The notes under the pieces were generated by a model. That model worked only from the letters and a program-made list of their open reading frames with translations. It searched no databases and was not told where the DNA came from. A stretch of 64,000 nt of DNA from a virus. Made by a program: the position numbers and the translations under genes. Below, in pieces: positions 1 to 42,795 of the stretch; within the stretch, counting starts at the first letter, position 1, and every line of letters starts with the position of its first letter. Where the stretch lies: positions 1 through 64,000 of IMG/VR virus record IMGVR_UViG_3300026488_000021. One strand, written 5' to 3'.

Positions 1-885
1 TAAAGCTTCGTGCTGTCCTTCTATCAACTCTTCTACTCATTGTTCTGGTCGTGTAATATAGCCTGCATAAAATAAAACTTTTTTGTAATTTAGTAAATAA
101 TCTGTAAAGCTTCTGTAAAGTTTCTTACCATGATGTTTTATTCATTTAGAATTAAGATAATCTATAATATCTTTTTTGTATTCTAGCTGTCAGTTTGCAA
201 ACATTTCTAAAGCTTGTTTTAAGTAAGTTGCTTCTGGTTCTTTGATTAGCAAAATTTTCTGGTCTTTTCATCCAATTTTTACATAATCTTTTTTGTATCA
301 TAAAGGTGCATCAGGCCAAGGATAGTAGCCTTGTAAAATCTTACTTTTAATTCAGTTCATAGTTCTAGCTTTAATTTTTGTTCTTTCATAACTTGCAACT
401 AAGTATTGGAAATTTTGGATAAATTTACCTTCATCAGTAGTAGTATCTGTTGGGTGCATAGTGTAAATAATTTTTGCACCAGTGGATTTTATTTTTTGAT
501 CTACTTCAAGAGTATCGATTAAGTTCTCACTTCTAGAAATTCTTGAAGCTTCAGTTGTAATAAAATATTTAATTTTAACTCACTTTTTATTTTCTTTTTC
601 TAGGAAATTTAAAGCATCAGATAAGCCTTTTCTTTCAAGTTTAGCACCAGAAATTCACTCATCTTTAAAAATTTTGACAACTTCTACATTGTTATTTAAA
701 GCTCGTTGCTGGCACATTTGAATTTGGCTTTCAATTCCGTGTCAATGCTTTGCTTGGTCTTCTGTAGAAACTCTAGCATAGATAATCCCATAAGTCTTAT
801 CTGGTGAATATTTATTATCGTCAGAAACAAGTCTTAAATTATCTAAATCTAACTTGAAATTTTGTTTTTTCTTGTTATTATTCAT
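1..885 (-). CDS. Large serine recombinase/integrase (3' end runs off the window)
   Basis: ATG at 885. Reads ...GIIYARVSTEDQAKH(TGA=G)HGIESQ...KDE(TGA=G)ISGAKLERKGL... (catalytic YARVS motif), then recombinase-domain FYAGYIT(CGA)PEQGVEELIEGQHEAL. Confidence 0.9.
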
Positions 886-1237
886 TGTGCTTAGTAATTA
901 AAAACTAAAAAACCATAGAACCTTTTGCACGGGGGTTCTTTTTTTTTACTAAAAAAACAATAAACAAAAAAAAGTAAATCTCAAACAAAAATAGTTCGGA
1001 CTAAATTTTAAAATTTTCATCGCAAAATTTTTGCCAGTGAATCTCCAAAGTGATTTCTGCTATTTGGTATAAAATTTCTAAAATAGTCTTGATTTCTTCT
1101 TCTGTGTATCAAGCTTGTTGTAGAATTTTAAAAGCCTTTTGGATTGTATTTTTGTTTAGATTTTCGTATAACATTTTAAAAAATCAGGAAATAACTTAAT
1201 TTTAGGAAAAATTTGGTTTTTGTGTCAAATTTAATGC

Positions 1238-1265
1238 TTGACTGAAAAGAAATAAAATTTATAAA
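1238..1265 (+). promoter_or_regulatory. sigma70-like promoter for the TA operon (TTGACT-16-TATAAA)
   Basis: Hexamers read directly upstream of ATG 1302. Confidence 0.45.
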
Positions 1266-1301
1266 TTGAGTAGTAAAAATTTAAATTGTAACTTTCTAAA
1301 A

Positions 1302-1790
1302 ATGGCAAAAAATGCTATGGATGTTGTAAAAGCTATCATTTTTAATTACATAAAAAAACAAGAGGAAAATAATATCCCTAAGGACCAATATGAATATCCA
1401 ACTCAATTGAAAATACAAAAGTTATTGTATTTTGCTCAAGCAGCATTTTTGAGTTTATTGAATAAGCCTGCTTTTAAAGAGGAAATAGAAGCTTGGCAGT
1501 ATTGACCTGTTGTAAGAGAAGTTTATAATGAACTAAAAAAATTTTGAAATAATCCTGTTAAATTTGACTCAGCTGATCTAAAAAAAGCTTATTCTAAGTT
1601 TTCAGATAAAGAAAAGGATATTATAAGTTTTATAAATGATACTTTTTGAAAATATTCTGCTTCTAAACTTGTGGAGATAACTCATAAGCATAAACCTTGG
1701 AAGGAAGCTTTTGAAAGAGATGAAACAGTTATTTCTAAGTCTACATTACAAAAATATTATAAGCCTTTATTTGAATTTGATCTAAAATAA
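1302..1790 (+). CDS. Panacea-domain (DUF4065/SocA-like) antitoxin
   Basis: TQLKIQKLLYFAQ...IEAWQY(TGA=G)PVV...KYSASKLVEITH..KPW hallmark motifs; 162 aa with TGA=Gly. Confidence 0.88.
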
Positions 1791-2236
1791 TGGGGTTTAG
1801 ATATAACGAGGAAATAGATTTTCCAAAAATTGTTGAGAATCCAGAGGAGAAAGTTGTAATAAGTTTAATTTGTTTAGCAGATGATTGAAAAAGTTTCTCG
1901 AAACAAAATGCAAATACAATAAAGGATTTTGTTAATTGGATAAGAAAACTTGAAGATATTACAGTTCAAGAATTTGTAAGTAGAAGTAGGGAGAAATGAT
2001 GATTTATAAAGGAACAAGAGAAACAACCAAATTATAAGTTTTTAAAATGATTAAGTAAAACCTTTAAAAATCATAAAATAAGGACTGTTGAAATCCAATG
2101 TTATAAGAATTCGAATTATTGACATTGTCATGTAGATAATAACAAATCCGGAAAACTTATAAGAGTTTTTGGAATATTAGTGTCGAATAAATTCTGTATT
2201 CTTGAGATAGATTGGAATTGAAAGAGAAATCATTAG
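1790..2236 (+). CDS. Putative cognate toxin (RelE-like RNase fold suspected)
   Basis: Translationally coupled (TAATG) to the Panacea gene; C-terminal HCHV...RVFGIL..NKFCILEIDWNG..NH pattern resembles RelE-like toxins. Confidence 0.55.
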
Positions 2237-2259
2237 CTGGTTTTTCCAGCTTTTTTTTT
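2235..2259 (+). terminator. Intrinsic terminator after TA pair
   Basis: AGCTGG-TTTTT-CCAGCT followed by a T run. Confidence 0.75.
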
Positions 2260-2352
2260 GAAAATTTTTTAAAGAATAATTCGAACTATTTTTACTTGAC
2301 TTTACTACTTTATTTTACTACTATTCTTATAATTTATTCTAGTTCGTAGAAT

Positions 2353-2865
2353 ATGAGAAAAAGAAAACTTTCTAAAAGAACTACAAAGAAAGAAAAAGTT
2401 GTAAGATATGATTGGGGAAGACTTTTTCAGGAATTTTTGTTTTCTGAATTTGTTTCAGTAAAAGATTTTTTGGTTTCTAAATGAATTTTAAAAGAAGATC
2501 AAAGACTTTCAGGAAATATGCAAACAAAAACAAAATGATGGGCTGAAGAAAAAAAGAAATTTTGGCAAGAAAAACTGGAAAATTTCGAACTAGATGAAAA
2601 ACAAAAACAAAAGTTTGGAATGGCTATTTATCAAGGTGTAGATGTTTTTGCAGAAATGCTAATTTATTATGCAAAAAAGCAAAGAGAAAAAATCAAAAAG
2701 TGAGATAAAGGAATTTATGTTAAGGAATTGGTGCAGTTTGGTAAATTATTAGAACATTTCCATAAAATCCCTTTGTGAACAGAAAACGATAATCAACAAG
2801 AAATTAAAGTAGAAAATCAAATATCTCTTAAAGACTTTTTACAAGAAATGAAGAAAAATGACTAA
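2353..2865 (+). CDS. Putative terminase small subunit (module 1)
   Basis: 170 aa, first gene of the packaging operon; basic N-terminus, YDW..LF.EF...GN..TKTKGW. Assignment mainly positional. Confidence 0.45.
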
Positions 2866-3289
2866 ATGAAGAAAAACTGTTAGAACAGCTTATAATCCTT
2901 ATAGAGAACTTTATAATTTTGTCTTTAAACTTATCTATTGCTTTGATTTAAAAAAATTTTTTAAGCAGTGAAAAATAAATATTCAATTTAAGGATAAGGT
3001 TATAAACCTTATCTATACCAAGCCGTTTGTAGAATTTTCGCAAGAAATCAGGCTAAATGCAAATAACAGAGAAGAAAAAGACAGGATAATTTATGCTATT
3101 CAAGAGTTTATTTTAAATGCCTATTACCTTTATGAACGAGATTGAAAACCTATGAAGTATAAGGATTTAGCTTGATTATTATTAGTTTCTCCACAAGCAG
3201 TAGATAACGAAATAAGACAAGAGATGCAAAAAGTAGCACAAAGAGCAAAAGAGCAATGAATTATAGTTGATTGAGTTAACACAGATTAA
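2858..3289 (+). CDS. Hypothetical protein with C-terminal HTH-like segment
   Basis: 143-aa open frame with TGA=Gly; MKYKDLAGLLLVSPQAVDNEIR resembles a sigma-region-4 type HTH. Confidence 0.5.
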
Positions 3290-3349
3290 AGAAAAGTTTA
3301 GAAAAATGAAGGTTTATCTAAAGAAAGTATTTAACTTTTTGAAAAAGAT

Positions 3350-4795
3350 ATGTATGAAAAAATAACAAAAGAGGATTTAGAATTTCTTATCCAAAACGAA
3401 GATAAAATTCCAGAAAGTTTACTACCACAGTATTTATACCGAAGGTGATTTTATGATTTTCAATTTTTCCAAGATTTTTTCTTTTCTCACTTACAAACCA
3501 TTAACTGAAAAAAAGTAAAACCTGCAAAATTTCATAAACAAATGGATAATGACTTAATGAGTGATAAAAACCTATTATGGATTATGTTTAGAATGTCTGG
3601 TAAAACAACAAAAGCCTTAATTTATATTATTTGGACTATTGTTTACAAACAAAGGTATTTTATTACTTTCTATGCTTTTGATAAGCAAAAAGCTACTGCT
3701 AAGATTTTCTGACTTGTAAGGGAGTTAGTAGAAAACCTAAAACTAAGAGCAGTCTATTGAGATATTTTCCCACAAAAGAAACTAACAAAAGACCAACTAC
3801 AAAAAAAGTCTATTGCAGAATTTATTACAACTAATTGAATTAAAGTAAAAGCACTTTGAATGTGAGAAAGCCCAAGATGAGAACTTCATATAACCGAAGA
3901 AGGTGCTTTTAGACCAGATTTGCTTTTGCTTGATGATATTGATGTTGAAAAATCTGTAAGTAATCCAAAGATTATTGACAAAAACTACCATTTTCTTAAA
4001 TCAGAAGTTTTTGGTTGATTAGGTTTTCAATCAAGAATTATTTTCTTAGGAAATATTATTAAACAAGATTGACTTGTCCCAAGATTTGAAAAAGAGTTTA
4101 AAAATAATCCTAACCGGATTGTAAGAAGACAACCTTTGATTGAAGATTGAAAAATAGTTTGGGAAGCTTTTACTTGGGAGAAAATAGAAGAACTTAGAAA
4201 AGAACAATGAGAAATAGCTTTTAATCAGAACTATTTACTTATTCCTTATGTAGACTGACAAATAATAATATGAAGAGAATATATCCAATACTATGATGTC
4301 CTACCTCCAAAACTTGAATACTATATTGGTATTGACCCTGCTATTTCCGAAAAAGAAACTTCTGATGATTTTGCTATTGTTATTTCTTGATATGATAGAA
4401 AAAGTAAAAACTACTATGTGGTGGAGGCAATAGCATTAAGATGAAAACAAAAAGAACCTTTCAAAGCAACCCAAACTATCAAGAACCTTTATCAGAAATA
4501 TAAGCCAAGATATGTGATAGTTGAAAGTGTAGCTTTCCAAAGAGTAATGGGGAAATTACTAAAAAATGAAGGTATAGCTGTAAAAGATATAAAAGCGACA
4601 AAAGATAAAATAACAAGGCTTAAAGAGAAACAATACTTGTTTGAACAACAAAGAGTTTTTTTCTCAAAAAATACGGAAGAGCTTGTAAACCAGCTAGTTA
4701 ACTTTCCAAATGTTCCACACGATGACCTTGTAGATGCTATGGTATATAGTCTAGAAGACCAAAGAAGAAGCTATGACGTGCTTTTAAGTTGATAA
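3350..4795 (+). CDS. terL: Terminase large subunit (module 1)
   Basis: Walker A FRMSGKTT, Walker B RPDLLLLDDID, IIFLGN coupling motif, nuclease IGIDPA and HDDLVDA; 481 aa. Confidence 0.92.
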
Positions 4796-4845
4796 AAACT
4801 AATAAAAAGTAAATTTATTTAGATTTATTTTACTAAAAATATTAA

Positions 4846-6228
4846 ATGCAAATCCAAATAGACCCAGCAATCCAAAAGGAAATAGAAAAAAGAAAACTTT
4901 TTGATAAGCTTTATAAAAATGATTTATCACATTTTTTAGAAGGGACTTTTAGAGAACAAATCTTTAATATTAAAAGTTTCCTTACGAAAGACCAAAGAAA
5001 AGATGAATTACTTTACATATCAGTTAACTTATCAAGCCTTATAGTTAAGAGTTTTGCTGATTTTTGTTTTTGAGACGGTCTAAAAATAGAATTATCGAAC
5101 TATCAAGAAGAATGGAAGGAAATAGAAGAAAACAACTATCTTGATAATGTATTTTATGGTGCTTTTATTAACCAGAGTAAAACTGGTTATTCTATTTTAA
5201 GAACAAGAAAAGAAAATGATGAGGTTATAATTGAAGAAATACCTTTTGACTATTATTATCCTACAATCTCTAATCTAGCACTTTGACAAGAACCAACAGA
5301 ACATACAATAGCAAGTTTTTATGTAGATGAAGATGGAAACCAAAAAGCAAATATCCAAAACTATAAACTACAAGAGAATTGAAAACGGCTTTTTACAGCT
5401 TGAACCTGAACCTTTGATTGACAGACAATAAATTTCGAAGAAATAACCTTACAAGAAGAACTAGATTTCTTACCAATTATAAGAATTGACAACCAAAAAA
5501 TAGCAGGGGAACTTTTTGGTAGAAGTGATTTAGAGGAAGTGCTAGACTTACTAGAAGAAATAAATGATAGAATAACCCAAATTTCTGTACAATTCATTAA
5601 ACACCTAAATGTAAAGATAGCTTTACCAGAAAGTATGTTAGAATGGATAGAAAGAGCAAAAGAGGAAGGAAAGATAAACTCCATTCAAGAACTTGATGTT
5701 ATTTGATTTAGTCAATGAGAACAAAAACCAGAGTTTATTGAAAATAAAAATATGCTTATAACTGATGCCTTAGATTATTTAGACAAACTTATAAAACTTA
5801 CAGCTAGTATAGTGCAAGTGCCTACAAGTTTCTTTGGTATAGAAGAGAAAGGTTGAGCTGAAAAAGTAGAAGCTTTAAGAATTAGAATGATGAGATTTCT
5901 AAAAAAAGTGGCAAGGAAACAAAGAATGTTTGAAAAAGGTTTAAAGGATTTAATAAAAAAGTCTTTAATGCTACAAGGTTATAATGTGGATAACTTAGAA
6001 ATTGATGTTAAATTCTCTGATTGAATACCTCAAACACTAGAACAGAAAGCAGAAATTTATCAAAACTTATATTTAAATTGATTAGTTTCAAAAGAAACAG
6101 CAATTAAAAAGATATTTGACCGGGATGATTTGTTTGTAAAAGAAGAATTAGCAAAGATAGAACAAGAAGACTTAGTAAATAAAGTAGTGCAATGACAAAG
6201 TATTTTACCAACTCTAAATAAACAATAA
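4846..6228 (+). CDS. Portal protein, SPP1 gp6-like (module 1)
   Basis: 460 aa directly after TerL; FGRSDLEEVLDLLEEIND and GLVSKETAIK motifs typical of this portal class. Confidence 0.8.
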
Positions 6229-6401
6229 TGGCTATTTATCAAAAAGTGAATTACAGACAAAAAATTATTGATAAGCTACCAGATACCATAGATAAGAAGA
6301 AATTTGCAAGATTGTATTTTTTAGGTTTATTCTACCTAGCTTTTGCAGTTATTATTTTACTATTTTCAATTTTATTGCCTTTTAAAATCTTATTTTTTTA
6401 G
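6228..6401 (+). CDS. Small membrane protein
   Basis: 57 aa with a hydrophobic C-terminal half; coupled to the portal stop. Confidence 0.55.
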   Translation: MAIYQKVNYRQKIIDKLPDTIDKKKFARLYFLGLFYLAFAVIILLFSILLPFKILFF

Positions 6402-7190
6402 ATGAAAGAATTAGATAAAAAGCTTTTACAATTATTTTTAGAAGCAGAAAAAGATATTTTACTTAAAGTAGAAACAGCTTTAAAGCAATGAAAGCAAATA
6501 ACAAGCTATAAAGCAGTTTTAGCTGATATACAAAATATTTTACAAAACCTTTGAGTAAATATTACAACCTGGGCTAATATAAGATTGCCTGAAAGTTATT
6601 TAGAAGGTGTAAACCTAGTAGATAAAAGTAGTGAAATCACAGATTTTCTAAAAGAAGAACATACAAAAGATGAATATGTAAATTTTATCTGAAACTATTT
6701 AGGGCAAATACATCTTGAAGCAGTAGAGAACTTAATTTCTGAAGGTATTGCTTATGCTAGCAATATTGTAGATTGAGTTTATAGAGGAGCTAGATGGAGC
6801 CTAGCAAAATGAAATGAAGTAGCAATCTTAGAAAAACTTGCAAAGTGAGAAATTGAAGGTGAAAGTTTACAAGAACTAAAACAAGAAGTGATAAAAACAC
6901 TAAAAGAAAAAGGATTGACTATAATGAAAGATAGAGGTTGAAAATCTTGGAGTTTATCTAGATATTGAGAAGTGGTAGTAAGAAGTGAGACAGCAAAAGC
7001 CTCTAATGCAGGAACTATAAATAGAGGAGTAGAAGTATGAATAACAAAATTTAAAAGAGTAGAAAAATTTGATTGCTGTGAAATATGTGCTCTACATAAT
7101 GGAGAGATTTGGGACGTAGCAAAACAAGGGCAACCACCTCTTATATATCATTCTAATTGTCGTTGATATTGGATACCTGTATTTGATTAA
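6402..7190 (+). CDS. Minor head protein, MuF/SPP1 gp7-like
   Basis: DRGGKSWSLSRYGEVVVRSETAKA...CCEIC..HNG...HSNCRG. Confidence 0.82.
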
Positions 7191-7255
7191 ACTTTTAGAT
7201 TGAAAAAAAATAAAAGTATTTAAAGTATTTTTGTTTTAAATCTTAAAATAATTAA

Positions 7256-7906
7256 ATGGAACAAAACAATTCAGTGCAAGCTGGTAGCACTGCTCAAAAC
7301 CAACCAGCAGTAGAAAACTCTGAACCAGTTAACTCTGGGACTGGGGAAGAGCAAGTAAAACAACCAGAGCAAACACAAGAACCACAAGAAGAGAAAAAAT
7401 ATAAAAACTGGATACCGCCAGAAAGATTTCAAGAGGTGATAGAACAAAAAAAGAAGTTGGAAGAAATGCTTAAACAAAAAGAAGAAATGGAACTAGCAGA
7501 GAAAGAAGAATTTAAGACTTTGTATGAAAAAGCAAAAGAGGAGTTAGAACAATATAAACCTTTAAGTGAAAAATTACAAAAATATGAAGAAGTTGTTAAA
7601 AATCTAGCAAATCAAGAGATAGAACAAGTAAAACAAGCAGTAGGTGAAGATAAATTTAATGAGCTTGTAGAATTGCTTGAACTAGATAAGTTAGAACCTT
7701 TACAATTAGTAGAGAAATTACCAAAAATTAAGAAACTTGCAGGTTTGACTAGTAAACCACAAGTAAGTTGAGGGCAACCAGTTCAAACAAATCAAACAGA
7801 TGAAAAAGCAGAATTTGAAATTTTAAAAAAGAAAGTAGCAAATCATACTGCTACTGGTGAGGAGTTGTTAAGGTATAAACAACTTATGGCAAAAATGTTT
7901 AACTAA
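7256..7906 (+). CDS. Capsid scaffolding protein (module 1)
   Basis: Acidic/Q-rich N-terminus, IPPERFQEV then coiled coil; immediately precedes the capsid gene. Confidence 0.75.
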
Positions 7907-7929
7907 ATTTAAATCTTAATTAAAAAGAA

Positions 7930-9072
7930 ATGTTTAAAATCAATGATTATCCATACTTAGCAGATAAAACAGGTGCAATTTTGCCTTTGACAGGAGGCGA
8001 TAAAACTATTTTAAATCTGTTTAGGATAGAAAAACCTATTCAATATGTATCAACCTATGAATGGTATACAACTAAGGCAAGAAGGTTAGAAGGGACAATT
8101 ACAGCAGATTGGGATGCTACAACAACAACAGGTTTAGCAATTAGTGCAGAATTAGCACAAACATTGTTTGCAAATACAATTTTAATGGTAGAAGATGAAT
8201 ATGTTAAAGTAAAAGCAGTTGATAAAACAGCAAATACTATTGATGTTTATAGAAGATGAGATTTAGGTTCAACAGCAGCAACACATTCCAATTGAACTAA
8301 AATATTTGTTATCTCAAATGCAGAAGTTGAAGGAGGAATTACAGCAGAAAATGTAATGTCAGAAAAAGTAAGATATGAAAACTTTATCCAAGAAATCACA
8401 GATAGATTGACTTTGTCTAAAAGAGCAGTTAATTCATCTTTGAAAGACTATGAAGATTTAGTTTTGGAAGAAAGGCAAGAAAAACTAGAAACTCAATTAA
8501 AGAAATTACAATTAAACTTGATTTATGGTAAACCATATAAACCAGCAGTAGGTGAAGCAGACCAATCAGCTTGGACAGCAGGTGGTGTAAAACACTATAT
8601 CACAACAGGTGGTGGTGTTATCTCAACAGGTGCACTTACACAAGACAACTTTGATGCTTTCTTAACAGAATTAGCAAATAGAGAAAGTGAAGTTGATGTT
8701 TTAATTGTAAATCCATTTGTAAAAACAAAGTTAGCAAAATTGGCTAACTATACAGAATACGTAGATGCACAACAACAAAATAAAGATGTTTATGCTGGTT
8801 ATAACTTATTAGGTTTTGTTTCAAATACTTTCAATGGTAGAATTTTGCAAGTTGTAAGCTCACCATTAGTAAAGACTAATGAAATCTTTGCAGTAAAAGC
8901 TGATTATTTGAGAGTATATCCAGTAAAAGATAGATTGACAGGAAATACTCAATTGTTCGACTTTGTAAAAGAAACAAATACATCATCAGCAGTATTGGAC
9001 GAAACTTTGAGAACTGTTTATACAACAGAAATCCAAAAACCAGATACAATGGGTATCTTTATTGTAAGCTAG
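7930..9072 (+). CDS. Major capsid protein (module 1), DUF5309/SU10-like with inserted beta domain
   Basis: The two track ORFs join through TGA into 380 aa; YEW, ENFIQEITD, AGGVKHYI motifs; follows the scaffold gene. Confidence 0.8.
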
Positions 9073-9094
9073 TTTTAAATCTTAATTTAATAAA

Positions 9095-9271
9095 ATGCTT
9101 GTAAGAATAACAAGAGAATGCCTTATTGAAGGTAAGACTTATAGAAAAGGACAGGTTGTAGAAGTAGAAAAATTTGTAGGAGTTTGTATGGAAAAAGTAG
9201 AAGACAAGAAGAAAGAAAAGGAAGAGGAAAAAAGGGAAGAAAAGAAAACAAAGAAAGGAGGTAAAAAATAA
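9095..9271 (+). CDS. Small K/E-rich head-associated protein
   Basis: 58 aa MLVRITRECLIEGKTYRKGQVVEV..., a typical post-capsid gene. Confidence 0.55.
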   Translation: MLVRITRECLIEGKTYRKGQVVEVEKFVGVCMEKVEDKKKEKEEEKREEKKTKKGGKK

Positions 9272-9286
9272 AAGCCTCCTTTTTTT
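9254..9286 (+). terminator. Intrinsic terminator closing head module 1
   Basis: AAAGGAGG...CCTCCTTT followed by a T run. Confidence 0.65.
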
Positions 9287-9345
9287 AAATTGAGAAAATG
9301 AAACTAAAATTATTATACAAGTGATTTAATTTTAAAATAAAAGCT

Positions 9346-10914
9346 ATGGCAAAAAGAAAACAACAAAATCAAAAATGAGGTGTTTTAATTCCAGTAATTA
9401 AATGAGGTTGAAACTGATGAGCTTCTTCTTTTATAGAATTAAATGATACACCTGGTTCTTTTTCTTGACAGGCAGGGAAAACGTTAAAAGTAAATGCATC
9501 AGAAGATTGATTAGAGTTTACACCTAATACAGGAACAGATGAAAAAGTATGACTTAATGCATTAGATGTACCTGGTTATTTGGAAGATAAAATAGATTGA
9601 AATACTATTAAATCAGATTGAACAAAAATATTAGTTGATTGAAGTGTATTAGATGTAAATAAAGTTGATGGCAAAGACGTTAATGACAATAAAATAGATA
9701 ATACTGCACTATGGACAGCTAAAAAGATTTGAGATGAACTTAATAAAAAAGTAGATAAAGTAGTATGAAAATGATTGTCTACAAATGATTTTACTGATGC
9801 TTATAAGAATAAATTAGACTGAATTGAAGATTGAGCTGAAAAAAATGTACAATCTGATTGGAACCAAATAGACAATACAAAAGATGATTATATAAAAAAC
9901 AAACCAGATTTATCTATTTATGAAGAAAAAGCAAACAAAGTATCATCTTGGCAAACTACACCAGACAATATTCATTATCCATCAGAAAAACTAGTTAAGG
10001 ATAATATAGACGATTTACAAAATAATAAAGCTGATAAAATCACTTCGTGAGTAGAAAATAATTTTGTTTCAATAGATAACACGTGAAACATAAAAGACAG
10101 TTGAAAGAAAGCAGATGATTTTGCAAATGCAACACATACACACAATTGGACTGATGTAAATAAAACTTGAAGTAAATTATCTGATATAGAAGATGTACCA
10201 GCTTATACAGGGAATGCAGGTAAGCTATTAGCTGTTAATAATACAGAAGACTGATTAGAATGGGTTGAGTGATGAGGTTGATGAGGTGGTTGATGATGAG
10301 GTTGATGAGGTGGTTGATGAACTATACCTAATAATCCATATGCAATATATAAACTTAATTGAGATTTAACAGACAGTAGTTGAAATTGAAGAGATTTAAC
10401 ATTGTATATTTGAACTCCAACTTATAAGACAGAGTGAGATATTACATATGTTGACACAAGAAGTAATAAAATTGCTACAAGAATGGATGGTGGTACCTTA
10501 CTAAACCAATGGACCTTTTATGTTAAATTAAGAGATGTTGGAACAAGTACTCGGCAAACCATCTTTGGTTGAGAGACTAATGATAATATTGCAGTTTCAA
10601 TATATAAAAGTAGTAATAAATATGTTATTAACTGATATAAATCTGGACACTGAACTCAATATTCCTATGCAAGTGATGTTAATGTAGATTGAAATTGGCA
10701 CAAATTAGCAATTAGTTATAACAATTGAACTATCAAAATATATATGGATTGACAATTTAAAGTCTCTAAGAGTTGAACTTTGGACTTTAATTGTAATACA
10801 TTCTTTTCTGATGAATATAATAGTGCGAATGAGCCTGCATCTTGAGAGTTTGATGATATAATTGTATACGATAGAGTATTAACAGATAGTGAAGCAAAAA
10901 GTTTAACAAGTTAA
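9346..10914 (+). CDS. Fibre/receptor-binding protein with C-terminal LamG/ConA-like domain
   Basis: 522 aa; fibre repeat modules (LNDTPGSFSGQAGK; GKGLSTNDFT..YKNKLDGIE; NVQSDWNQ), 17-Gly linker, LamG motifs DGNWHKLAISY...IYMDG...FDDIIVYDRVLT. Confidence 0.8.
10270..10320 (+). repeat. TGA/GGT codon run encoding Gly17 (24-nt unit duplicated)
   Basis: 11 TGA and 6 GGT codons in frame; unit TGATGAGGTTGATGAGGTGGTTGA at 10270 and 10294. Confidence 0.9.
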
Positions 10915-10940
10915 AATTTTATATTTTAAAAAAAATAATT

Positions 10941-11267
10941 ATGCCTAAAATTGAAGAAAATAAAGAATTGAAATATTTAATTCAAGCAGGAAATGATTTA
11001 TATCCTTGAAGATTTTTATGAGTTTTAGATTGAAAAATAATCTTGAAATGATGAGATAAAGTTGATGAAAATAAAGTAAATGAATATATAAAAAAAATTA
11101 AGAAAAAGGAAAATATTCTCTCAGTAGCAACACTAACAGACCAACTTAATTTAATTGCCTGAGTATTAGCAGAACAAATAGAGGCAAAACCAGTCAATGA
11201 AAGAACAGAGTTAGAAAAAAAATGATTAAAGATTTATAAGTCTATAATGAGGATTTTAAACCAATAA
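10941..11267 (+). CDS. Hypothetical protein (possible fibre chaperone)
   Basis: 108-aa open frame after the fibre gene. Confidence 0.55.
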
Positions 11268-11276
11268 ATTAATATT

Positions 11277-11645: not shown

Positions 11646-11653
11646 GGTTAATT

Positions 11654-24246: not shown

Positions 24247-25257
24247 ATGGCAAGAAAATTCTTAGTTGATTTAGATCTAAACCAAAACCAGTTATTGAAC
24301 GGTGTTATTCATAAAGGAACATCTGAGCCAACATCAGCAGTTGAAGGACAAATTTTTTTCAATACATCGGAAGATAAGCTTAAAATTTATGATGGCTCTG
24401 CTTGGATTGTATTACAAGATAATGCTAGTGCATTATTATCAGATTTAAATGATACAGATATCCAATCTGTTGCAGATGCGCAAGTATTAATTTATAATTC
24501 ATCTACTGGTAAGTGGGAAAATAAAACTTTATCAGGGGATATATCAGTAGATAATACAGGAGCTGTTACAATTAATGATGGTGCGGTTCAATTTGATGAT
24601 ATTGATAGTAATGCCATCTCATCTGACTTAGCAAATGATGCTAGTTCTACAAAAGTAGCGAGAGCGGATGCTGTTAAGTCTTATGTTGATAACGCTGTTG
24701 CAACTACTGATGCATTCACACTTAAAGGTGAGATTGATGCTAGTACAAATCCAGATTATCCTGCTGCTGATGCTGGTGATGCTTATGTAATTAGTGTTGC
24801 TGGTAAAGTTGGTTGAACTAATGGTACACCTGTGGAAGTAGGTGATATGATTATCTGTAAGCAAGATGGAACTGCTAGTTGAGACGAGGCAACAGTAGGT
24901 GATAAGTGGATTAAGATACAAAGAAACACTGATTACGCTACAACTGATGTAATGGGTCTTGTTAAATTAGCTACACAAGCAGAAGCAGAAGCTAAATCTG
25001 ATACTCAAAAAGTAGTAACACCTGCTACATTAGTAAACTATACAAAAAGGTTTTCACAAGCATTTGGTAATACAACTGATACAAGTTATACAATTACACA
25101 TAACCTAGATAATAAGTTTGTAGTTGCTAAGGTTTATGATAGCTCAACAGGAGCAGAAGTTGAAACAGATATTACTTTGATTGATAATAATTCTTTAAGA
25201 GTAGATGTCTCAACAGCACCAGGCGATAATGCATTGACAATTGCTATAATTGGATAA
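24247..25257 (+). CDS. Virion fibre protein
   Basis: Track ORFs 24247 and 24952 join through TGA (336 aa); GLVKLATQAEA...VVTPATL fibre repeat, C-terminal ITHNL domain. Confidence 0.75.
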
Positions 25258-30704: not shown

Positions 30705-30721
30705 CTTTAAATAATTATAAA

Positions 30722-31114: not shown

Positions 31115-31122
31115 ATTTAAAT

Positions 31123-31316: not shown

Positions 31317-31326
31317 ATTTATATAA

Positions 31327-31578: not shown

Positions 31579-31752
31579 GTTATATTATTAATTTATAAAA
31601 GCAATATAATAACCAGCTATAAGCTGGCGAAAAGAGATTAGAAGAAGAGAATGTGATTGTTGACACAGGTTTACTTTTGTATTCTTTCTTTAAATAGAAG
31701 GGTTCCTTGGATTAGCTAGTTAGATTAGAATGATAGAAACTTGATAGAAATA

Positions 31753-31826
31753 CGGAGCTGACGGGATTCGAACCCGCGACCTCCTGCGTGACAGGCAGGC
31801 GTTCTAGCCAGCTGAACTACAGCTCC
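31753..31826 (-). tRNA. tRNA-Asp (GUC), CCA not encoded
   Basis: GGAGCTG acceptor, D-arm, CCTGC-CTGTCAC-GCAGG anticodon arm, GGTTCGAATCC T-loop, discriminator G. Confidence 0.95.
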
Positions 31827-31856
31827 ATAATGTAGGGATATACCCTACAAAATAAT

Positions 31857-33625: not shown

Positions 33626-34189
33626 CTAAAATCAAATTCATCTCCAACTTCTCTTCCACATATCTATGAAATAAATAGCCTGTTGTAATCTATCTGCAAT
33701 ACTTCAATGTAAAGTCCTGATTGTTAGTTTATTGTTTTGAGAATAAGCGTTATGTAACTCTTCTAAAACCCTCTTGTTTACTCCTCTCCTAAGTTCTTCG
33801 TTTGTATGTCTTACTCAATCATTTTCTATCTCAAACTCAATTGGTAGATAGAAAATAATGTCATATAAATATGGTGAATATTTTCTAACTATCTTTTTAA
33901 TATTCTCATCATCACAATATGCTGGTATAAGATTAATTGGAGTATCTGTTATTAAGTCGTCATACTTTCACGCAACGGCTAATGTTGTATGGACTAACCA
34001 TCTTTGATAATCTAGTTTTTGTTCTTCTGTATGTTTATTGAAATCAAATGACAGAAGTTCTGCTAATTCTCTTTCAGTGTTGATATCTAAGTGTATTTTA
34101 TCTCAGTATACTCTTTCATATTTTTCTTTAAGTTGATAAGCTAACGTAGTCTTTCAAGTTGAGAAAGCTCAAACAATTCCTATCTTCAT
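33626..34189 (-). CDS. P-loop kinase/ATPase (AAA_28/NadR-like)
   Basis: MKIGIVGAFSTGKTTLA...YDIIFYLPIEFEIENDGVR. Confidence 0.8.
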
Positions 34190-34194
34190 TTGTC

Positions 34195-34638
34195 TTAGTT
34201 AGAATTTAAATATCAACCAGTTGAACCAAACCCTCATTGTCTTTCCGTTACATTTTCTTTTTCCCAATTATCATACAAATTCTTATCAACTAATTTAATT
34301 AGTTCACAATCATCTCATATAACTTCCATCTGTGCAATCCTTTCTCATCTCTTAATTTCCACTGGGGTATCTGTAAAGTTATATAACATAGCCTTAGCTT
34401 CGTTTCTATAATCTGCATCTATAATACCAACACTATTTGCAAGCATCAATCCTTTCTTTAAAGGTAGACTACTTCTGACATACAGTTTCCAAGCGAAATC
34501 TGTTTTAATACCAAGTCATACCAATTTAACTTCACCTGGATTAATTACTACGTTCTCAGCAGATTTTAAATCTAAACATAAACTATTAGATGTTCCTTTC
34601 ATAGGTAATAAGTTTTCATCATAACTAATTACTTTCAT
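34195..34638 (-). CDS. dut: Trimeric dUTPase
   Basis: LDL, RSSL, NSVGIIDADYR, GERIAQ and ERQGGFGSTG motifs. Confidence 0.92.
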
Positions 34639-35805
34639 AATCTTTTCTTTTAAAAACTAAATCTTCCCGAATAGGGGAAACAAACTTAACCTCAACAGCG
34701 GACGGTAGATAATTCCACCAATTCTTTGGTTTTTTTCAAAATGTATCAGTAAATTTAGTATATCATGGCATTTTTAAGATAATGTTCCCGTTTCCGTCAT
34801 ACACATATCAAGTATACATATATCTATCTCAATGAGTTCATTTTCATCTTTGTGCTAATTCTTGTATTAGTTTTTTTGTAATTTTGAGTTCCTTTACTCA
34901 TTTTTTCCTCATTAACATACATACATAAGAAGCTAGTCATCACCTTGTTAAATTAGTACCAGCTACCAATTCATTTATTGTTTTGTCTCATATTATATAT
35001 CTATTCCCTGTTGGTCATTTAACCATCTTAATTGTTTTTCATACATTTTGTGCTAATATATCAATTGCTCTTACAAACATTGCTCTGGGTTTAATTTAAA
35101 TATGTAAATACTTTATCAATATTTGGTTCTCTATTATTCGCTTTTGCTGACAATATTTCCAAGAATGCTAATCTCAACAAATCTTCTGGAAGCATTGTCA
35201 TACCTAATATTCCTTTCATAACTCACAATATTTTATCTTTATCTTGATTTCAAAAGTACATATATCAAATAGTAGCTATCATATATTCTATTATTCATTC
35301 TAACACTTTTCCAATATCTTTATTATACCAGCATTGTATAATCATATTTCTATATTTATCCATATCTTGTTCATATTTTTTTAACAATTGTTTTGTATTT
35401 CAATCTTTATTTTTTTCTAAAAACTCAGTTGTTTTATCAAGTAAATCATCCCAATACAAAGTATCAATCACTTCTTTCTTTTTATCAGCATAAATATTAC
35501 CCAATGCTTTTTCTAATTCTTTATTCATTATTTATTTTTAAGGTATAAATATATTTGTCTCTTTGCAAAATAAGTCATCAATAATTTTAATTCATCTAGT
35601 TTTTTAATTTTACGTTTTCAGATTTTACTATACTCCTCATCTAAATTAGTTACTGCTCTATTATATTCTTTTTCAGAATACTTTCTTAATCTTTTTTCTA
35701 AATCCCAAAAAATATCACAATATTTTTTAATAGCTTTACCAAGTAAATGATTAGATATATTTACATTATCTTTAAGAAATCTTTTAAAAGCATTTGCATC
35801 TGCTA

Positions 35806-36492
35806 CTAACATAATCAATTATCTTTAAATCGTAAAGATGTTTCTTTTACATCCGTTCATAAGTATATAGAAACAAAATGGAATGGATTTCAATGCGCCC
35901 TTCATTTAGAAGAAAAGTCAGTAACTATATTTTGCGTAGTATTAGCTCTCCATCAGTCTGTCCATCTTCAATGCTCATATAAGGCATAAGTATCATATCA
36001 AACCTTTTTATATTCTATTCACAATTTATCTAATACAGATAAGATTGGTATTCTTTTTAAATCTTCAATATCAGGTAAATCTATTTTTTCTCACTTAATA
36101 ATCACTGGTTTATATTCTTTTTTTCTAGGGAAGCATTCCTCATAAATATCAGATAACTCAACATAAGGTTCAATCCTTTCAAAATCTACTACATATTTAG
36201 ATGTATTTGCTATAAATAATATGTTTTCTACTTCTTGTAAATCAAGATTATGTTTTTTTCTTATATTCTGTATATTTTCTTCTATCCACTTTTTGATTTC
36301 TTCAACTATTTCTTCCTGTGTTTTTTCTATTAACAAACAGGATAATCAATCTTGTTCGTATATTATATAATCTATTTGCTGTCATCGGTTAGATATTTTG
36401 TCATTATGTCTCTCTACTATTCTTTGTAATACCTTCTTAGGTGCTCTTATTAATTTATATTTCACACAATCTGGTAGCTCTGAAAAATACAT
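35806..36492 (-). CDS. Hypothetical replication protein with primase N-terminal-like C-terminal domain
   Basis: IPILSVLDKLG...TDFSSKGRAHGNPFHFV..YLG.....SL(CGA)FK resembles the DnaG N-terminal helical pattern, without the Cys ligands. Confidence 0.5.
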
Positions 36493-36508
36493 TGCTCTAT
36501 ATTAGTAT

Positions 36509-36958
36509 TTAAAATTCAACCTCTTCAAGTTCTATATCTTCATCTTGGATTTCATCTTTATAAGAGAATTTAAATTTGAAATATATTTCATCATTTTTAT
36601 TTCTCTTTTTCTCAATATTACACCAATATTCATCATTATATTTAAAAGCACAAGACACACCATCTTCCCTAATAAATTTCCAAATTACATATTCTTGTCA
36701 TCATACTTTTATTTTTCATAAAGCTTTTTTATTCTCTTGAAATATCAACTCAGCATCTTTATGTCAGTCTGGTGTAGCCAATTTAAATTTATAAATAATC
36801 TCTTCTCAATAATCTCATTTTCTTCTATCAGTTAGATCATCTTTATCTACTGTGGTAATCTTTACTACTTTTTTATAACCATCTAATGGTTGTCAGTTAA
36901 AATCTTTATCAAATTCTTTTTCCCAAATTTTGTTAAATGTTGTTTTAGTTTCTGTCAT
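36509..36958 (-). CDS. Putative ssDNA-binding protein
   Basis: 149 aa, beta-rich, acidic tail DEIQDEDIELEEVEF; lies in the replication cluster. Confidence 0.4.
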
Positions 36959-37347
36959 AATATTGTTTTATTAAATAAAATATAAATCATTTTATAAATT
37001 TTGTAGCTCTATAATCAACCCATCATCTTGTACTTACAACATCCTCTAATTTTATATGCATATCATCCTTCTTAACTTTATTTTTAAGGTAGTTCCCAAA
37101 TTTAACAAGATTAGTATCTGTAAAATATGGATTCGGAATATATCTATTAGTAAGATGTCTTTTATGTATCTTAATATATAGTTTTCAATTTTCTTTATAA
37201 AATCTAACAGCCAATCAAATTTCTTCGCTTTTTTTTTGAAGCCACTTATTTCTATATTGCAAAGATTTTCAGGTAAGGTTTCCTAATGATTTTATAAACT
37301 CTTTTGGCTCTAATGTAATTAACTCTCTTAAATTCATCTTGTATTAA

Positions 37348-39582
37348 TTAATTTATAAACTCGTACATGAATGCTTGCCAAAGTCTATTTTTGTAATTTG
37401 CTAAGTATCTAAATAAATATTGAACAATCCATTCAGTTCTTTTATCTCTTTCTTTTAATAATCTGCTTATGTTTATAACAATATTTTGGTTTTCACTTGT
37501 ATCATCTTTAACTAATTGTTTAATAGCTTGAATAGCATGATGCTTACTTCCAAGTTCTTCTGGAATATATAAATCGATAGTCACCTCTTCACCAACATCT
37601 CATCTTATATTGATTGACTGTTCCTTTTTATTATACAAGATAGTTTTTACAAAAAACTCTTTTAATTCATCTTTACCCTCAATAATAGCTCTATGTATTT
37701 TTGATGTTTTCTCTATGATAGTTTCAAGTTCTTCCTTAGAGAATACTTTGTAAATATCATTAACAATCCTTAACCAAGCATAGTTATTATCTATTCTAGC
37801 TTCTCAATTATCAATCCAATCTTTATATTTAGATAAGTCAACATCTTTCACTTTATCCCACATATCTGCAAGAACAGATTTTCAATTAAGACTTTTTCTG
37901 ATTTTCTTATAAGTCTCTTTATCTGTATGTAATGATTTATCTAATTGAACATAGATAGATCTATTCATAACAGACATATACTTTGGTGCTTTCTCTCAAC
38001 CAATAACAACAGGAGATAACATATTGTATGTAACAACACTTTGATCTGCTCTACCTTTCTTTGCATCTTTTTCATTATAAACTCATCTTAACATTTCTTC
38101 TATTTCAGATGAGATATTTCAAGTAAACTCATCAAAGAATATTGGCGCATAATCTCATAACTCATTTTGAACTGCAAATGTTCTTGTTCCTTCTAATGTC
38201 ATTGCTCTTGGTTGAATTGTTACATTTCCATCTTTTATTGGCGTAGGTGACAATCCCACAAGTTTCATCATCATTTGTATAGTTTCAGTTTTACCTGATT
38301 CAGTAAATCAGATAACCTGTAAGATTGGTGTTGGTATTCATTGCTGGAATAAATCCTTTTTAAGGAAAGCTCATAAGAACCATAGGAATATAATATAGTG
38401 ATAAGGTTCTCTTAAATATCACTTCATAATTTTCTTTGCTTCTTGTATAGTTATTTGTTCTCAAATAGTAGTAGCATATTTAGGAGCAAATACTTTAAAT
38501 TCTTCATCTGTATCTTTATACAACATCTGTCATCAATGGACAAATATTTTTTTTTCTAGATCAATTCAATTATGTTCTACAATTTTAAACTCAGGTATAT
38601 TATCTTCATCTATCCATTGGTCTAGTGCTGAATAAAACATTTGAAATGTTTTTCAAGTCGTCATCATTCTTATTCATTGTCATCATAATCTTTTATTGAA
38701 ATGGTCTGTATTCTGATAATATGGGAAGATAATATCTCATTCGAAGTAGTAGTATCTTTTCTTAATATCAGTAATCACATTATTTAAGACATCGTAATTA
38801 GACTCATACCATCCTACCAGTTTCAACGGTTTATCAATAATTACACTTTCAACTTCTGCATCTCAATTTGTTTTAATTGAATATACTCCGTCTTTTCTAA
38901 ATTCTATTTTATGTGTATCACTGATATTATACATATAATAGATATCTGTCTCTTCTATACCATCTATTCAGAATTGCTGTAATAACTTATTCAGTTTTGT
39001 AATACTTCATTTAGCAAGTCTATACAAACAATCAAACACATTTCAAGATATATTGTCATCTTTATTTCTTATATCTAAGACAATTCCTAGTTCATTAGAT
39101 ACAAATACTTCTTGATTTTCTATCTCATCAACAAACAATTTCGCACCTACATCCTCTGGTAAAATAAGAGAATTAACTTTCTCTTTAAGTTCTGCTAAAT
39201 CTCAATTTAATTCTAAATCTTTACTTATAAGTTGTAAAGCTTTCGATAATATTGACAAGTCTTTTATAGAAGGTTCTGTATTCTTTATTGTTAAGTCATA
39301 CACTTCTTTCTTCCATTCTCATATTTTAATCTTCCCTCAATTATCAACCTGCCATCATATTAACTTCCACCGATTTGGTTTGATGTTTTTAGTTAACTTC
39401 TGTATCACAGTATCCTTATTAGAAATTATTGCCTTCTTATTTCAGAATTCTCAAACTACATTAAAGATAGGTAGATCTATTGCTTCCTTAGAAATCTTTC
39501 TAAGCAAAATTCCATTATCAATGAAAGCATATTTTGCTTTATCTTTAATAGTAGTTTTTCAATCTTTATCTAAGTATTTCAT
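37348..39582 (-). CDS. Replicative P-loop helicase (DUF927/primase-helicase type)
   Basis: 744 aa; Walker A GFTESGKT, Walker B IFFDEF, LRGVYN...KGRADQ, Arg-finger-like VMNRSI. Confidence 0.75.
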
Positions 39583-40161
39583 AACTTAGCTGTTATTCAA
39601 TAAATCATTCTCTATTTACATCTGTTATAATTCAAACATATTCAGCATCTGTATTTATTTTTTCTCAATTTTTAAGTCAATATACTCTTCATTGTTTGTC
39701 TCTTACTAAAATTACGGATTTTAAGTCACATACAGCAATACCATTCCTAAATGTATGTACTCAATAATTTGTCATTCTGTTCATGTCAAATCCTTTTGCA
39801 GCTTCTGTATATTCTTCTATACTTGCTTTTATTATTTGTGGTTCATTATTTTTTTTATTTTCAAGCTTTTTAATCTTTTCATTCAGACTCTTCAAAGAAA
39901 GTTTCTCTGCCATTGTTTTTTTTGTTACCATATAAATAAGCAACTATTGGACTAAATCATCTTTTACTAATATCTAAAAACAGATCTGTCATCTTATCGT
40001 AAAACTCTATACCTTCTTTCTTTCAATACTTTCTAATACTCTCTTCTAATAAGAATTGTGGTTTACCAGCAAATCTAATTAGGATATTGTTTTCAGAATT
40101 CTTAAAATAAATTCAATTGTCATCAACATATGTTTTAAAATAGATTTTCATCTTGCTCTTG

Positions 40162-41511
40162 TTATATATTAAATAGTTCTTTAATATCTTCCTTCTTTTT
40201 ATATTGATTTTTAATTTCTTCTGCAAGTGATTTTAATTGTATAGATTTTTCTATATCAATCAAGTAATTCTTATATTTTTTTATTTCTATGTCTCACCAC
40301 ATTTCTTTATAAGCTTTCATTCTTTCTCTTACTTGCGAGTATAAATTCCCATCCTGGAAATCATAATATTCTGGATTCTCTGAACCTCTTAGTATTCTTC
40401 CAATAGCTTGTTTTACTTGTGCCTTAAATTTTACGAACATAAAGTAAAAAGCTGTATCTAATGGAGGATGATCAAATCAAGTTCCTACTGACTGATAAGT
40501 TGCAACCATTACTCATTTTTTTTCTGTCAATTCTTTTAATATTTCTTCTCTTTTCTTTTTACTAACTTTTCAAGTATAAGCAGCAGCAGAGATTCAAAGT
40601 TTATTTAATGCAACTGCTATTCACTCAGCTATATCAGTTCTATCTACAAATATTATTCACATATTTCTGTCTCATCTTTTCATTACATCTTCAACTAAGA
40701 ATAAGAAGTGAGCTAATCTTTCTGTATCCCAATACATTGTATCGACCAAGTCCTGCCAGTCAACAGCATTATAAGATTTACTAAACTTATAATAATAAAC
40801 CTCAGGATTTTTAGGTCGTATTCAACTGTCGATATATACATTATTAAACATTTTAAATAATGCTTCTGAGGGAAAATTATTTAACTCTGGGGTTCAAGTA
40901 AATCAATATACTTTGTCATACTTATATTGACAGAAGAAATGTATTCTGTTTCTTGTGGTAAACTGCATATGTATCTCATCTATTAGTACTTGTTTGTAAA
41001 TACTATCTAGTGATAACTTCTCCCAATACATATCAAAGGATCTTGAAACAATAATAAGAACCTTAGGAGGATTAGTTCTACTAAACTTATCCTTATTAAA
41101 TATTTCTACTTCAATTCACAATCATTTAAACTTCTCGTATAATCATTTTGCAATCTCTGTCTTCGGTGCAATAACTAAGGTATGTCAAGAATATACCTTA
41201 GCTATCGCAGCCATCATATAACTTTTCCCTGACCCCACACCTGATAAAAGAAGTCAATAATTATATTTCAATAATTTCTCAACTGCTTCTTTTTGTTTAG
41301 GTCTAAGAAAATCTGGTAGTTGTATACTATCTTTAGTTTCTTTTTCTATCCCAAATGTCCTTGGTAAAATATATGTATTGCTTCATCTTTTTTTTTCAAA
41401 AAGTTTAAGCTGTTTAGGTCGCGCTTCATTAAATGGATTTTGCTCTTTAAATATTAGCTCTTTTGGTAACTCAAAACTTAAAACTTTATCTCAGATTCTG
41501 TAATATTTCAT
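40162..41511 (-). CDS. SF2 DExH helicase (UvsW-like)
   Basis: LRPKQKEA, GVGSGKS, IDEIH, GFTGTP, GFDHP, QAIGRILR. Confidence 0.9.
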
Positions 41512-42224
41512 TCCTCTACATTAAGTTTAAATAATGGACATTTCTCTTTTAATTCACAGAAATGACACATTCTATTTTGTTTAGGTTCATAATCATCAAA
41601 GTCTTGTGAGTTTTGATATTCTATAACTACTTTTTTAATTTTCTTTAAACAGTCTTCTTTTGTAAATTCTCTTTCAAACTCCTTTAAACTTGCACTACTT
41701 TTCTTTTCGAGAACTACATATCTAAACTTAGCTTTATTAAATCAAAAGTATTCCATAGCCAAATATGAGTATACTGTTGATTGTAAACTTTCATTCCAAA
41801 TATCATCTCATTCATACCAATTCTTATTATTAGATGTTTTCCAGTCTATGATTAAGAGTTCTTGACTTTGTCAAGAATCTCTTATAGCAACCAAATCTGC
41901 TGTTCAAGTAATCCATGTATTCTCTATTTTTTTTACAAATGGAATTTCTGTATAGACAAAGTTATAGACATTGTCTATTTGTTGTCTATATTGAATAACT
42001 TTATCTGCAAGCTTGTCTATTATTTTTTTAGTTTTCAAGTCTGGATTTATTTCTTTCGAATACCAGTCTATCATCTCTTTCTTACTTTCTGGATGTCTAC
42101 TTACAAAGTGAATTAAATCTCATAAAGCACTCACTTCTATTGGTATATTTACTTCTCAATATTTAAACTTATATGGACAAGTATTATAGATAGACAAGCT
42201 TGTAGTTCTTATTTGATTAGTCAT
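41478..42224 (-). CDS. PD-(D/E)xK exonuclease, Cas4/RecB-like
   Basis: CPYK...GDLIH...GTADL...IDWKT...Q..VY...C.FC..K..C (four-Cys cluster). Confidence 0.85.
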
Positions 42225-42795
42225 TACAATTATTAAATTTATAAATCTCATTTCAATACACATCTCGTCCTTTAGGTTTACATCTTGCAAATACCTCTAT
42301 CTTCTTTAAATTAGGATACATAATATCTAAGTTCTCTCTAACCTTATCAGGCTTTCTACTATGTTCTCTTATAGGCTCTGCTATGATTTGATTTATCATA
42401 GGTTTAGCAGGTTTAAATCTTCATCCATTCTTTCACTTAATTCATATTAATACTAGTTCCACATTACTAGCTGTATAATATCAGGGATTAATCCTATAAC
42501 TTCAATCTTTATTTATTTTTACCCATGTAAAAGCTACAGTTTTATAAACAAATCACCAATACTTCATAAGTTCAATAGCAAAATCAAGTCTAGGACATGT
42601 AGCCCACATAAACATTATACAGTCTTTATTTGCCAGACTACTTATAACATTCTTAAAGTTTAGTAGTTCTTCATCTCTCATAAGAGGATAGTGTTTCATA
42701 GCTCATCCTCAAAACTTTATTTTATTTTTTCTTTCTCATCAAGTTTTCCTAGAATTATACCACCAAGGTGGATCAATATAAATCAAGTCATACAT
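42217..42795 (-). CDS. MT-A70 family N6-adenine methyltransferase
   Basis: YDLIYIDPPW, HYPLM, FMWAT, FTWVK, EHSRKP, EVFAR..KG(CGA)DVYGNE. Confidence 0.92.

Follow-up and report, generated by a model that had tools for sequence, protein, structure and literature searches.

Evidence that CGA and CGG are probably read as tryptophan, on top of UGA as glycine, in a tailed phage contig

The closest described counterpart of the genetic code considered here is that of the Absconditabacteria (SR1), for which the Codetta screen predicted UGA as glycine together with CGA and CGG as tryptophan (Shulgina & Eddy, eLife 2021, PMC8629427), a code that later screens found again. Transfer RNAs with UCG or CCG anticodons were assigned there to tryptophan by the presence of G73 and the lack of A20, and CGG may have the meaning tryptophan in some Gracilibacteria as well (PMC8629427). 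We have analysed the first 64 kb (the window, to which positions refer unless stated otherwise) of the linear IMG/VR virus record IMGVR_UViG_3300026488_000021, a contig of 82,022 bp with a CheckV completeness of 75%, for which an earlier reading of the letters alone (the original prediction) had proposed the same double recoding and had cited this precedent accurately. By its genes for a terminase large subunit, a portal and a major capsid protein the contig is a tailed phage (Caudoviricetes). The code of such hosts is already published, and a phage using it would be the new element; we found no report in the full-text literature of phages that use CGA and CGG (together, CGR) as tryptophan.

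The contig resembles the Absconditabacteria in its low GC content (28% here against 26-38%; 27.9% in the window), its rare CGR codons, AGA as the main arginine codon and the retention of UGG, and in that metagenome-assembled genomes (MAGs) with related contigs carry tRNA(UCG) and tRNA(CCG) with G73 and no A20, as well as a tRNA(GCG) for CGU and CGC. It differs from that work, which concerned bacterial genomes, in being a phage without decoders of its own and in its probable origin from a hydrothermal-vent metagenome. Reading TGA as glycine it agrees with NCBI translation table 25 (SR1/Gracilibacteria), under which the window holds 76 open reading frames (ORFs) of at least 100 amino acids against 13 under table 11. 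Unlike the reading proposed here, table 25 keeps CGA and CGG as arginine, and so places arginine at residue 256 of the first terminase large subunit (TerL1) and at residue 177 of the MT-A70 protein.

Among phages, those of Absconditabacteria and Gracilibacteria that use code 25, prophages included (Liu et al., mBio 2023, PMC10746230), share the presumed host group and a high density of in-frame TGA. Coding density served there to compare codes 11 and 25, with no mention of CGA or CGG, and some of those phages shun the recoded codon, remaining compatible with two codes. Codetta was applied to phages in PMC8629427 only for the case of AGG as methionine; like those phages, from samples of AGG-recoded Bacilli, the present one would follow a sense-codon reassignment of its host without a tRNA of its own, although the codon, the amino acid and the host phylum are different and those phages lack a stop-codon layer. 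Stop-codon-recoded phages of standard-code hosts (TAG as glutamine or TGA as tryptophan) also have a non-standard code, but their code departs from that of the host, and many of them encode suppressor tRNAs, release factors or aminoacyl-tRNA synthetases; the present phage has none of these, and appears simply to mirror its host's code.

Positions of CGA and CGG codons in alignments

The ORFs of the window comprise 18,149 codons, among them 15 CGA, 14 CGG, 11 CGT, one CGC, 437 AGA, 92 AGG, 183 TGG and 799 TGA. CGA and CGG each account for 0.8 per 1000 codons, as rare as the original prediction had said; read as tryptophan they would make up about 14% of the tryptophan codons, and they are scattered over structural and replication genes. 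A protein search with TerL1 found relatives up to 69% identical, and with the TerL alignment 172 loci were retrieved from collections of viruses, genomes and metagenomes, 116 after de-duplication. The closest locus, L094, has a TerL 73% identical and offers 2,733 alignable codon pairs, and is itself without any CGN codon. Usable homologs were available for 10 of the 29 CGR codons of the window (seven CGA and three CGG), which are as follows.

49-51, minus strand: CGA, residue 279 of a serine recombinase
703-705, minus strand: CGA, residue 61 of the serine recombinase (ORF 1-885, which runs off the contig)
3137-3139, plus strand: CGA, residue 94 of ORF 2858-3289; TGG in L094
3440-3442, plus strand: CGA, residue 31 of TerL1; TGG in L094
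4115-4117, plus strand: CGG, residue 256 of TerL1 (ORF 3350-4795), in a conserved tryptophan column
5386-5388, plus strand: CGG, residue 181 of an SPP1-type portal (ORF 4846-6228; Pfam SPP1_portal); TGG in L094
6121-6123, plus strand: CGG, residue 426 of the portal; TAT (tyrosine) in L094
40816-40818, minus strand: CGA, residue 232 of an SF2 helicase
41419-41421, minus strand: CGA, residue 31 of the SF2 helicase (ORF 40162-41511)
42265-42267, minus strand: CGA, residue 177 of an MT-A70 protein (ORF 42217-42795), in a C-terminal G-W motif

All ten stand at tryptophan or aromatic positions and none at arginine or lysine, which bears out the placement originally claimed, its MT-A70, TerL1 and recombinase examples included. 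The coordinates it had given (42265, 4115, 703, 49, 10552 and 35830) were all correct, and CGA 42265 belongs to the MT-A70 ORF rather than to the overlapping nuclease ORF.

The comparison with L094 is at the level of codons; to keep arginine from attracting the alignment, CGA and CGG had beforehand been replaced by X. Four of the five alignable CGR codons (CGA-3137, CGA-3440, CGG-4115 and CGG-5386) lie opposite TGG and the fifth, CGG-6121, lies opposite TAT. As controls, 96 unambiguous arginine codons of the contig (AGA, AGG or CGT) lie opposite arginine 61 times, lysine 16 times and TGG once, and 26 TGG codons lie opposite tryptophan 15 times, tyrosine three times and phenylalanine twice. TGG is therefore found opposite CGR in four of five cases and opposite arginine codons in one of 96 (Fisher p=6e-6); CGR likewise differs from all non-tryptophan codons taken together (p=7e-10) and is indistinguishable from TGG (p=0.62).

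Two of the codons occupy columns that are nearly invariant. At TerL1 residue 256 the codons of 109 loci include TGG (41 recoded and five standard-code loci), CGA (36), CGG (8) and TTT/TTC (13), and none of the 109 has AGA, AGG, CGT or CGC; the standard-code loci have TGG or TTY, and database proteins have tryptophan in 72 instances and arginine in 20. The column of MT-A70 residue 177 holds tryptophan 103 times, arginine seven times, phenylalanine six times and glycine not once among 119 homologs. Some database entries translate TGA as tryptophan, which makes the TGA columns an important comparison: in this protein they have about 100 glycines and about 15 tryptophans, and residue 177 is thus not a glycine column, since such a column would show many glycines. 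Within the same gene the TGG at residue 91 has tryptophan 110 and arginine 9, and the AGA at residue 171 has arginine 117. The Pfam MT-A70 match spans residues 2-181; the PDB alignment ends five residues short of the CGA. We attribute the minority of arginines in conserved tryptophan columns to relatives with CGR as tryptophan that were translated with the standard code.

The remaining columns are more varied. TerL1 residue 31 is tryptophan in database protein P0002 and tyrosine in P0003, the column being hydrophobic and variable in distant relatives, and it falls in an arginine column only if the CGA is translated as arginine, because it adjoins a true arginine. Recombinase residue 61 has tyrosine 66, tryptophan 23, arginine 23, phenylalanine 19 and histidine 6 among 150 representatives, and phenylalanine, tyrosine and methionine in three PDB chains; the AGA codons of the same gene (residues 38, 85, 115 and 118) have arginine in 143-150 of the 150. 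Recombinase residue 279 has tyrosine 67, phenylalanine 10, serine 10 and lysine 9, with tryptophan in the closest relative (76% identity). In close relatives of the helicase (41-64% identity) residue 31 is tryptophan in four, tyrosine in two, phenylalanine in one and arginine in one, with no lysine or glycine, and residue 232 is tryptophan in five and arginine in three, with leucine, valine, phenylalanine, alanine or serine in distant relatives and again no lysine or glycine.

We also decoded the whole code in the manner of Codetta, summing log column probabilities over four homolog alignments for each codon type. Three or more columns were available for 51 codon types, and 50 of these decode as in table 25; the sole exception is CGA, which decodes as tryptophan, as does CGG from its single column. 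When CGA and CGG are pooled, tryptophan scores best, with leucine 4.8 and arginine 6.5 natural-log units behind, a conservative score because CGR-bearing relatives were themselves scored as arginine. TGA decodes as glycine (50 columns, 40.9 natural-log units ahead of tryptophan), TGG as tryptophan (14 columns), and AGA and AGG as arginine (46 and 7 columns). Tabulating consensus residues by codon, the check proposed with the original prediction, thus gives tryptophan for CGA and CGG and glycine for TGA, and the continued use of TGG for tryptophan is upheld as well.

Two further parts of that prediction fared less uniformly. It had placed CGT at conserved arginines of a MuF-like protein and a phosphoesterase: the MuF site is asparagine (AAT) in its only relative, the Pfam MuF match ends before it, the Pfam match of the phosphoesterase lies just below the cut-off, and PDB has no match for either protein. 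The statement that both ends of the window share the code holds for TGA; the tryptophan-type placement of CGR is shown for codons at 49-6121 and 40816-42265, the two stretches that the comparison covers.

Taken with the codons of L094, the homolog columns and the Codetta-like control, these results make it very probable that CGA and CGG encode tryptophan in this phage in addition to UGA encoding glycine, as originally proposed. The phage, or possibly two co-assembled phages, would then use the predicted Absconditabacteria code, in which UGA is glycine, CGA, CGG and UGG are tryptophan, AGA and AGG are arginine, and CGU and CGC, judging from relatives, are presumed to be arginine. According to ARAGORN, applied to the full 82 kb as well as to the window alone, the contig has a single tRNA gene:

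31752-31827, minus strand: tRNA-Asp(GTC)

No tRNA reading CGA, CGG or UGA was found by ARAGORN on the whole 82-kb contig, and the host must therefore supply their decoding. In the mechanism that we propose, host tRNA(UCG) and tRNA(CCG) with tryptophan identity elements would be charged by the host tryptophanyl-tRNA synthetase and read CGR, a host tRNA-Gly(UCA) would read UGA, and tryptophan would be inserted at CGR sites that include invariant tryptophan positions of TerL and MT-A70.

Alternative readings of CGA and CGG

Several observations weigh against reading CGR as tryptophan throughout. The comparison covers 10 of the 29 CGR codons in the window, all of them at 49-6121 or 40816-42265. 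For helicase residues 31 and 232 and recombinase residue 279 it is made at the level of protein, where a tryptophan in the database can be a TGA codon. Two further places look compatible with arginine:

51037-51339, minus strand: an atypical 100-codon ORF with CGA at 51049 and 51079, CGG at 51118 and CGT at 51175
55124-55564, plus strand: CGA 55124 and CGG 55562, in the intein/LAGLIDADG insert of the second terminase large subunit (TerL2, ORF 53798-57004)

In the first, three CGR codons stand in a basic-looking C-terminal context. The ORF has no TGA (about four would be expected), a GC-rich 3' end (0.42) and a codon usage unlike that of the phage; it has no relatives in Pfam, PHROGs or the protein atlas, and may be partly non-coding. 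In the second, CGA-55124 can be placed opposite an arginine of PI-SceI, in the only match obtained, a weak one (19 bits) that is reached via a gap and in which the CGA of the query was taken as arginine. TerL2 is split by this intein with its LAGLIDADG homing endonuclease, the insert matching LAGLIDADG_3, Intein_splicing and Hom_end in Pfam and PI-SceI and the gp41-1 intein in PDB. The other CGR codons lie in credible ORFs without alignable homologs:

CGG: 10552, 11720, 12849, 13095, 13467, 18293, 26463, 34667 and 39370
CGA: 33369, 35830, 36385, 46183 and 47270

No homologs with usable DNA or standard-code sequence were found for these, the LamG codon at 10552 and that at 35830 included. In IMG/VR, TerL1, the helicase and the second capsid protein gave no match as single queries, and a scan with the helicase alignment gave distant matches only; none of 40 TerL-related viral records has the helicase, and tblastn against GenBank phages found it at 25-33% identity only and gave no match for a 744-amino-acid protein. 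Neither PHROGs nor the protein atlas had a match for further CGR-bearing ORFs.

The alternative that survives best, though we consider it unlikely, is a mixed state, in which CGR is decoded ambiguously or inefficiently, or is tryptophan in one of two co-assembled genomes, or remains arginine in some acquired genes. The outlier codon usage of ORF 51037-51339 speaks for such a state, and Shulgina & Eddy note that decoding ambiguity is not excludable without experiments (PMC8629427). Co-assembly has some basis in the contig itself. It carries two unrelated head-packaging modules, one at 2353-9072 (TerL1, the SPP1-type portal and an SU10 capsid) and one at 53248-61358 (the intein-bearing TerL2 and a P22/SU10-type portal). 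A 1.6-kb repeat of 91.5% identity (9659-11276 and contig positions 66906-68537) has an exact core of 503 bp (10288-10790 and 67547-68049) that could mediate an assembly cross-over; CGG 10552 lies within this core, with identical sequence at 67811. In L094 the genes corresponding to 2.9-9.1 kb of the contig (module 1) are joined directly to the neck genes found here at 68.6-72.1 kb. Given the two modules, the repeat and this jump in gene order, it is possible that the contig is a cross-over assembly of two phages.

Against a mixed state, both putative components carry tryptophan-type CGR codons (at 49-6121 and at 40816-42265). The read evidence points the same way. A hydrothermal-vent metagenome, run X1, matches the contig best among public runs (0.99 of sampled words) and is probably its source; smaller shares of words occur in three further vent runs from separate studies, and no RNA run is among the sequencing runs listed for the contig. 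Contig depth in X1 is even, 16-19 on both sides of the repeat and 30.9 on the repeat piece, as fits a single molecule. Of 1,247 differences in X1, none of the 40 listed falls on a CGR codon.

That CGA and CGG are still arginine, and came to stand in tryptophan columns through real tryptophan-to-arginine substitutions or by chance, is very improbable. Related phages do read CGR as arginine, in 13 TGA-recoded loci and in all standard-code loci, and ORF 51037-51339 and the intein site look compatible with it. This reading is at odds with the absence of CGR codons from arginine and lysine columns in the ten cases compared, with the two that occupy near-invariant tryptophan columns of essential motifs, and with the excess of TGG opposite CGR in L094. 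Hardly credible is an artefact by which TGG appears as CGG, whether through T-to-C errors of sequencing or assembly or through editing of C to U in RNA. The two codons are one transition apart, but CGA accounts for half of the codons; editing would make it UGA and hence glycine, and it nevertheless lies in tryptophan columns without glycine. Forty-four independent loci, drawn from many samples, show this pattern too, and X1's own contigs give the same sequence with 0-1 differences.

Related loci, host lineage and decoding tRNAs

The related loci fall into several decoding states. Among 100 non-redundant TGA-recoded loci, CGR is of tryptophan type in 44 and of arginine type in 13, CGA and CGG are absent from six, and 37 are unclear; standard-code loci read CGA and CGG as arginine. 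When the 44 tryptophan-type loci are pooled, the columns of CGA have tryptophan at.43 and arginine at.03 (557 columns) and those of CGG.46 and.03 (102 columns), against arginine at.50 for CGT,.51 for CGC and.52 for AGA; columns of TGA pooled over relatives have glycine at.50. The 13 arginine-type loci have GC contents of 0.33-0.43. Those without CGA and CGG (L094, L003, L039, L047, L060 and L071; 2,800-6,500 codons, GC 0.24-0.30) also lack CGT and CGC entirely or nearly so. These six could be compatible with hosts of both kinds, CGR as arginine and CGR as tryptophan, in parallel to the two-code-compatible phages of PMC10746230, or the absence could be a mere effect of their very low GC content.

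In 24 of the 44 tryptophan-type loci, including L147, L163, L166, L035 and L085, CGR outnumbers TGG. CGA and CGG amount to 65 and 2 against 14 TGG in L147, to 87 and 4 against 21 in L166, and to 63 and 2 against 11 in another locus, and these loci thereby exceed the host genome cited by Shulgina & Eddy, in which CGR only comes near UGG. The three states of the related phages (CGR as arginine, none, and CGR as tryptophan) might record a codon-capture path taken by their hosts, a reading that we put forward tentatively and think doubtful. If it held, selection moving tryptophan off UGG would be a possible driver, because tRNA-Gly(UCA) can read UGG by wobble, and phages like L094 that lack CGA and CGG would be generalists crossing between CGR=Arg and CGR=Trp hosts.

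A separate feature was seen in L038, L044, L045, L048, L051, L088 and L090, where TAA and TAG are several-fold depleted in all frames and TGA is very frequent, and three or more frames are consequently open under table 25.

Contigs related to the phage are binned in MAGs labelled Absconditabacterales, Gracilibacteria or Patescibacteria. Full tRNA sets were taken from two MAGs with tryptophan-type contigs (G041 and G042), and the tRNA(UCG) of one with an arginine-type contig (G045) served as a control. G041 and G042 each have tRNA(GCG), tRNA(UCU), tRNA(CCU), tRNA(UCA), tRNA-Trp(CCA) and tRNA(UCG), and G042 also has tRNA(CCG), so that tRNAs of the kind originally proposed to be sought in the host, with UCG and CCG anticodons and tryptophan features, are present in MAGs of related contigs. 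Both tRNA(UCG) and the tRNA(CCG) have A1:U72 and G73, lack the GGA(A/T) D-loop context of arginine tRNAs, and are closest to tRNA-Trp(CCA), at 64-71% identity; tRNA(CCG) has its whole D-arm in common with tRNA-Trp(CCA). A73 is found in the GCG and CCU tRNAs and in the UCU tRNA of G041. In the control, tRNA(UCG) has G1:C72, A73 and a GGAAG D-loop.

Since related contigs occur in MAGs with these labels, two of which have tryptophan-type tRNAs, a host of Absconditabacteria type is plausible for the phage, and we infer that this host has tryptophan-type tRNA(UCG) or tRNA(CCG). The phage tRNA-Asp is about 80-84% identical to tRNA-Asp genes of the MAGs, a level that is not diagnostic of a host. The strong host-range barrier of the original prediction is something that we infer only: in standard-code hosts the obstacle would come chiefly from the 799 in-frame TGA codons, and CGR would make a difference mostly among code-25 hosts, between those with arginine and those with tryptophan for it.

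Gene content and consequences of the code

Pfam recognises two Terminase_6C genes (one of them intein-bearing), SPP1_portal, P22_portal/SU10_portal, SU10_MCP and a MuF-like minor capsid protein, as well as a holin, the SF2 helicase, a PD-(D/E)XK nuclease, MT-A70 and the serine recombinase. A GC-rich island at 51400-53000 reaches 0.60 GC in a genome of 28% GC, and spurious ORFs there abound in CGN triplets. Set between divergent gene blocks, it probably represents either an origin region or a structured RNA; Rfam gave no match there at E<=0.01 (50.5-53.8 kb). TGA, with a genome mean of 44 per 1000 codons, is nearly avoided in the capsid and scaffold-like genes and in others whose expression is probably high, which suggests that UGA as glycine is disfavoured in them:

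60030-61358: no TGA
59138-60007: one TGA
7930-9072: two TGA
7256-7906: one TGA
24247-25257: two TGA

With CGA and CGG as tryptophan and UGA as glycine, tables 4, 11 and 25 would all mistranslate the proteins of this contig. The public proteins P0001, P0115 and P0132, which are copies from the contig, use TGA as tryptophan and are 94-96% identical to the table-25 translation (96% for the database copy of TerL1), so that about 4% of residues are wrong besides the CGR sites. For the contig, and for no fewer than 44 related loci of viral or metagenomic origin, public translations would have arginine for tryptophan at CGR, often at invariant tryptophans of TerL, MT-A70 and the portal, and some are wrong at every TGA too. 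The split between tryptophan and arginine in database homolog columns would follow from this mistranslation.

For host prediction, the reading of CGR would separate phages of code-25 hosts with CGR as tryptophan from those of code-25 hosts with CGR as arginine, which TGA alone cannot do. The predicted use of CGA and CGG for tryptophan would be extended to a hydrothermal-vent virus, and its relatives, with their three states and with CGA as the dominant tryptophan codon in some, may supply ample data for testing whether sense codons are reassigned by codon capture or through an ambiguous intermediate.

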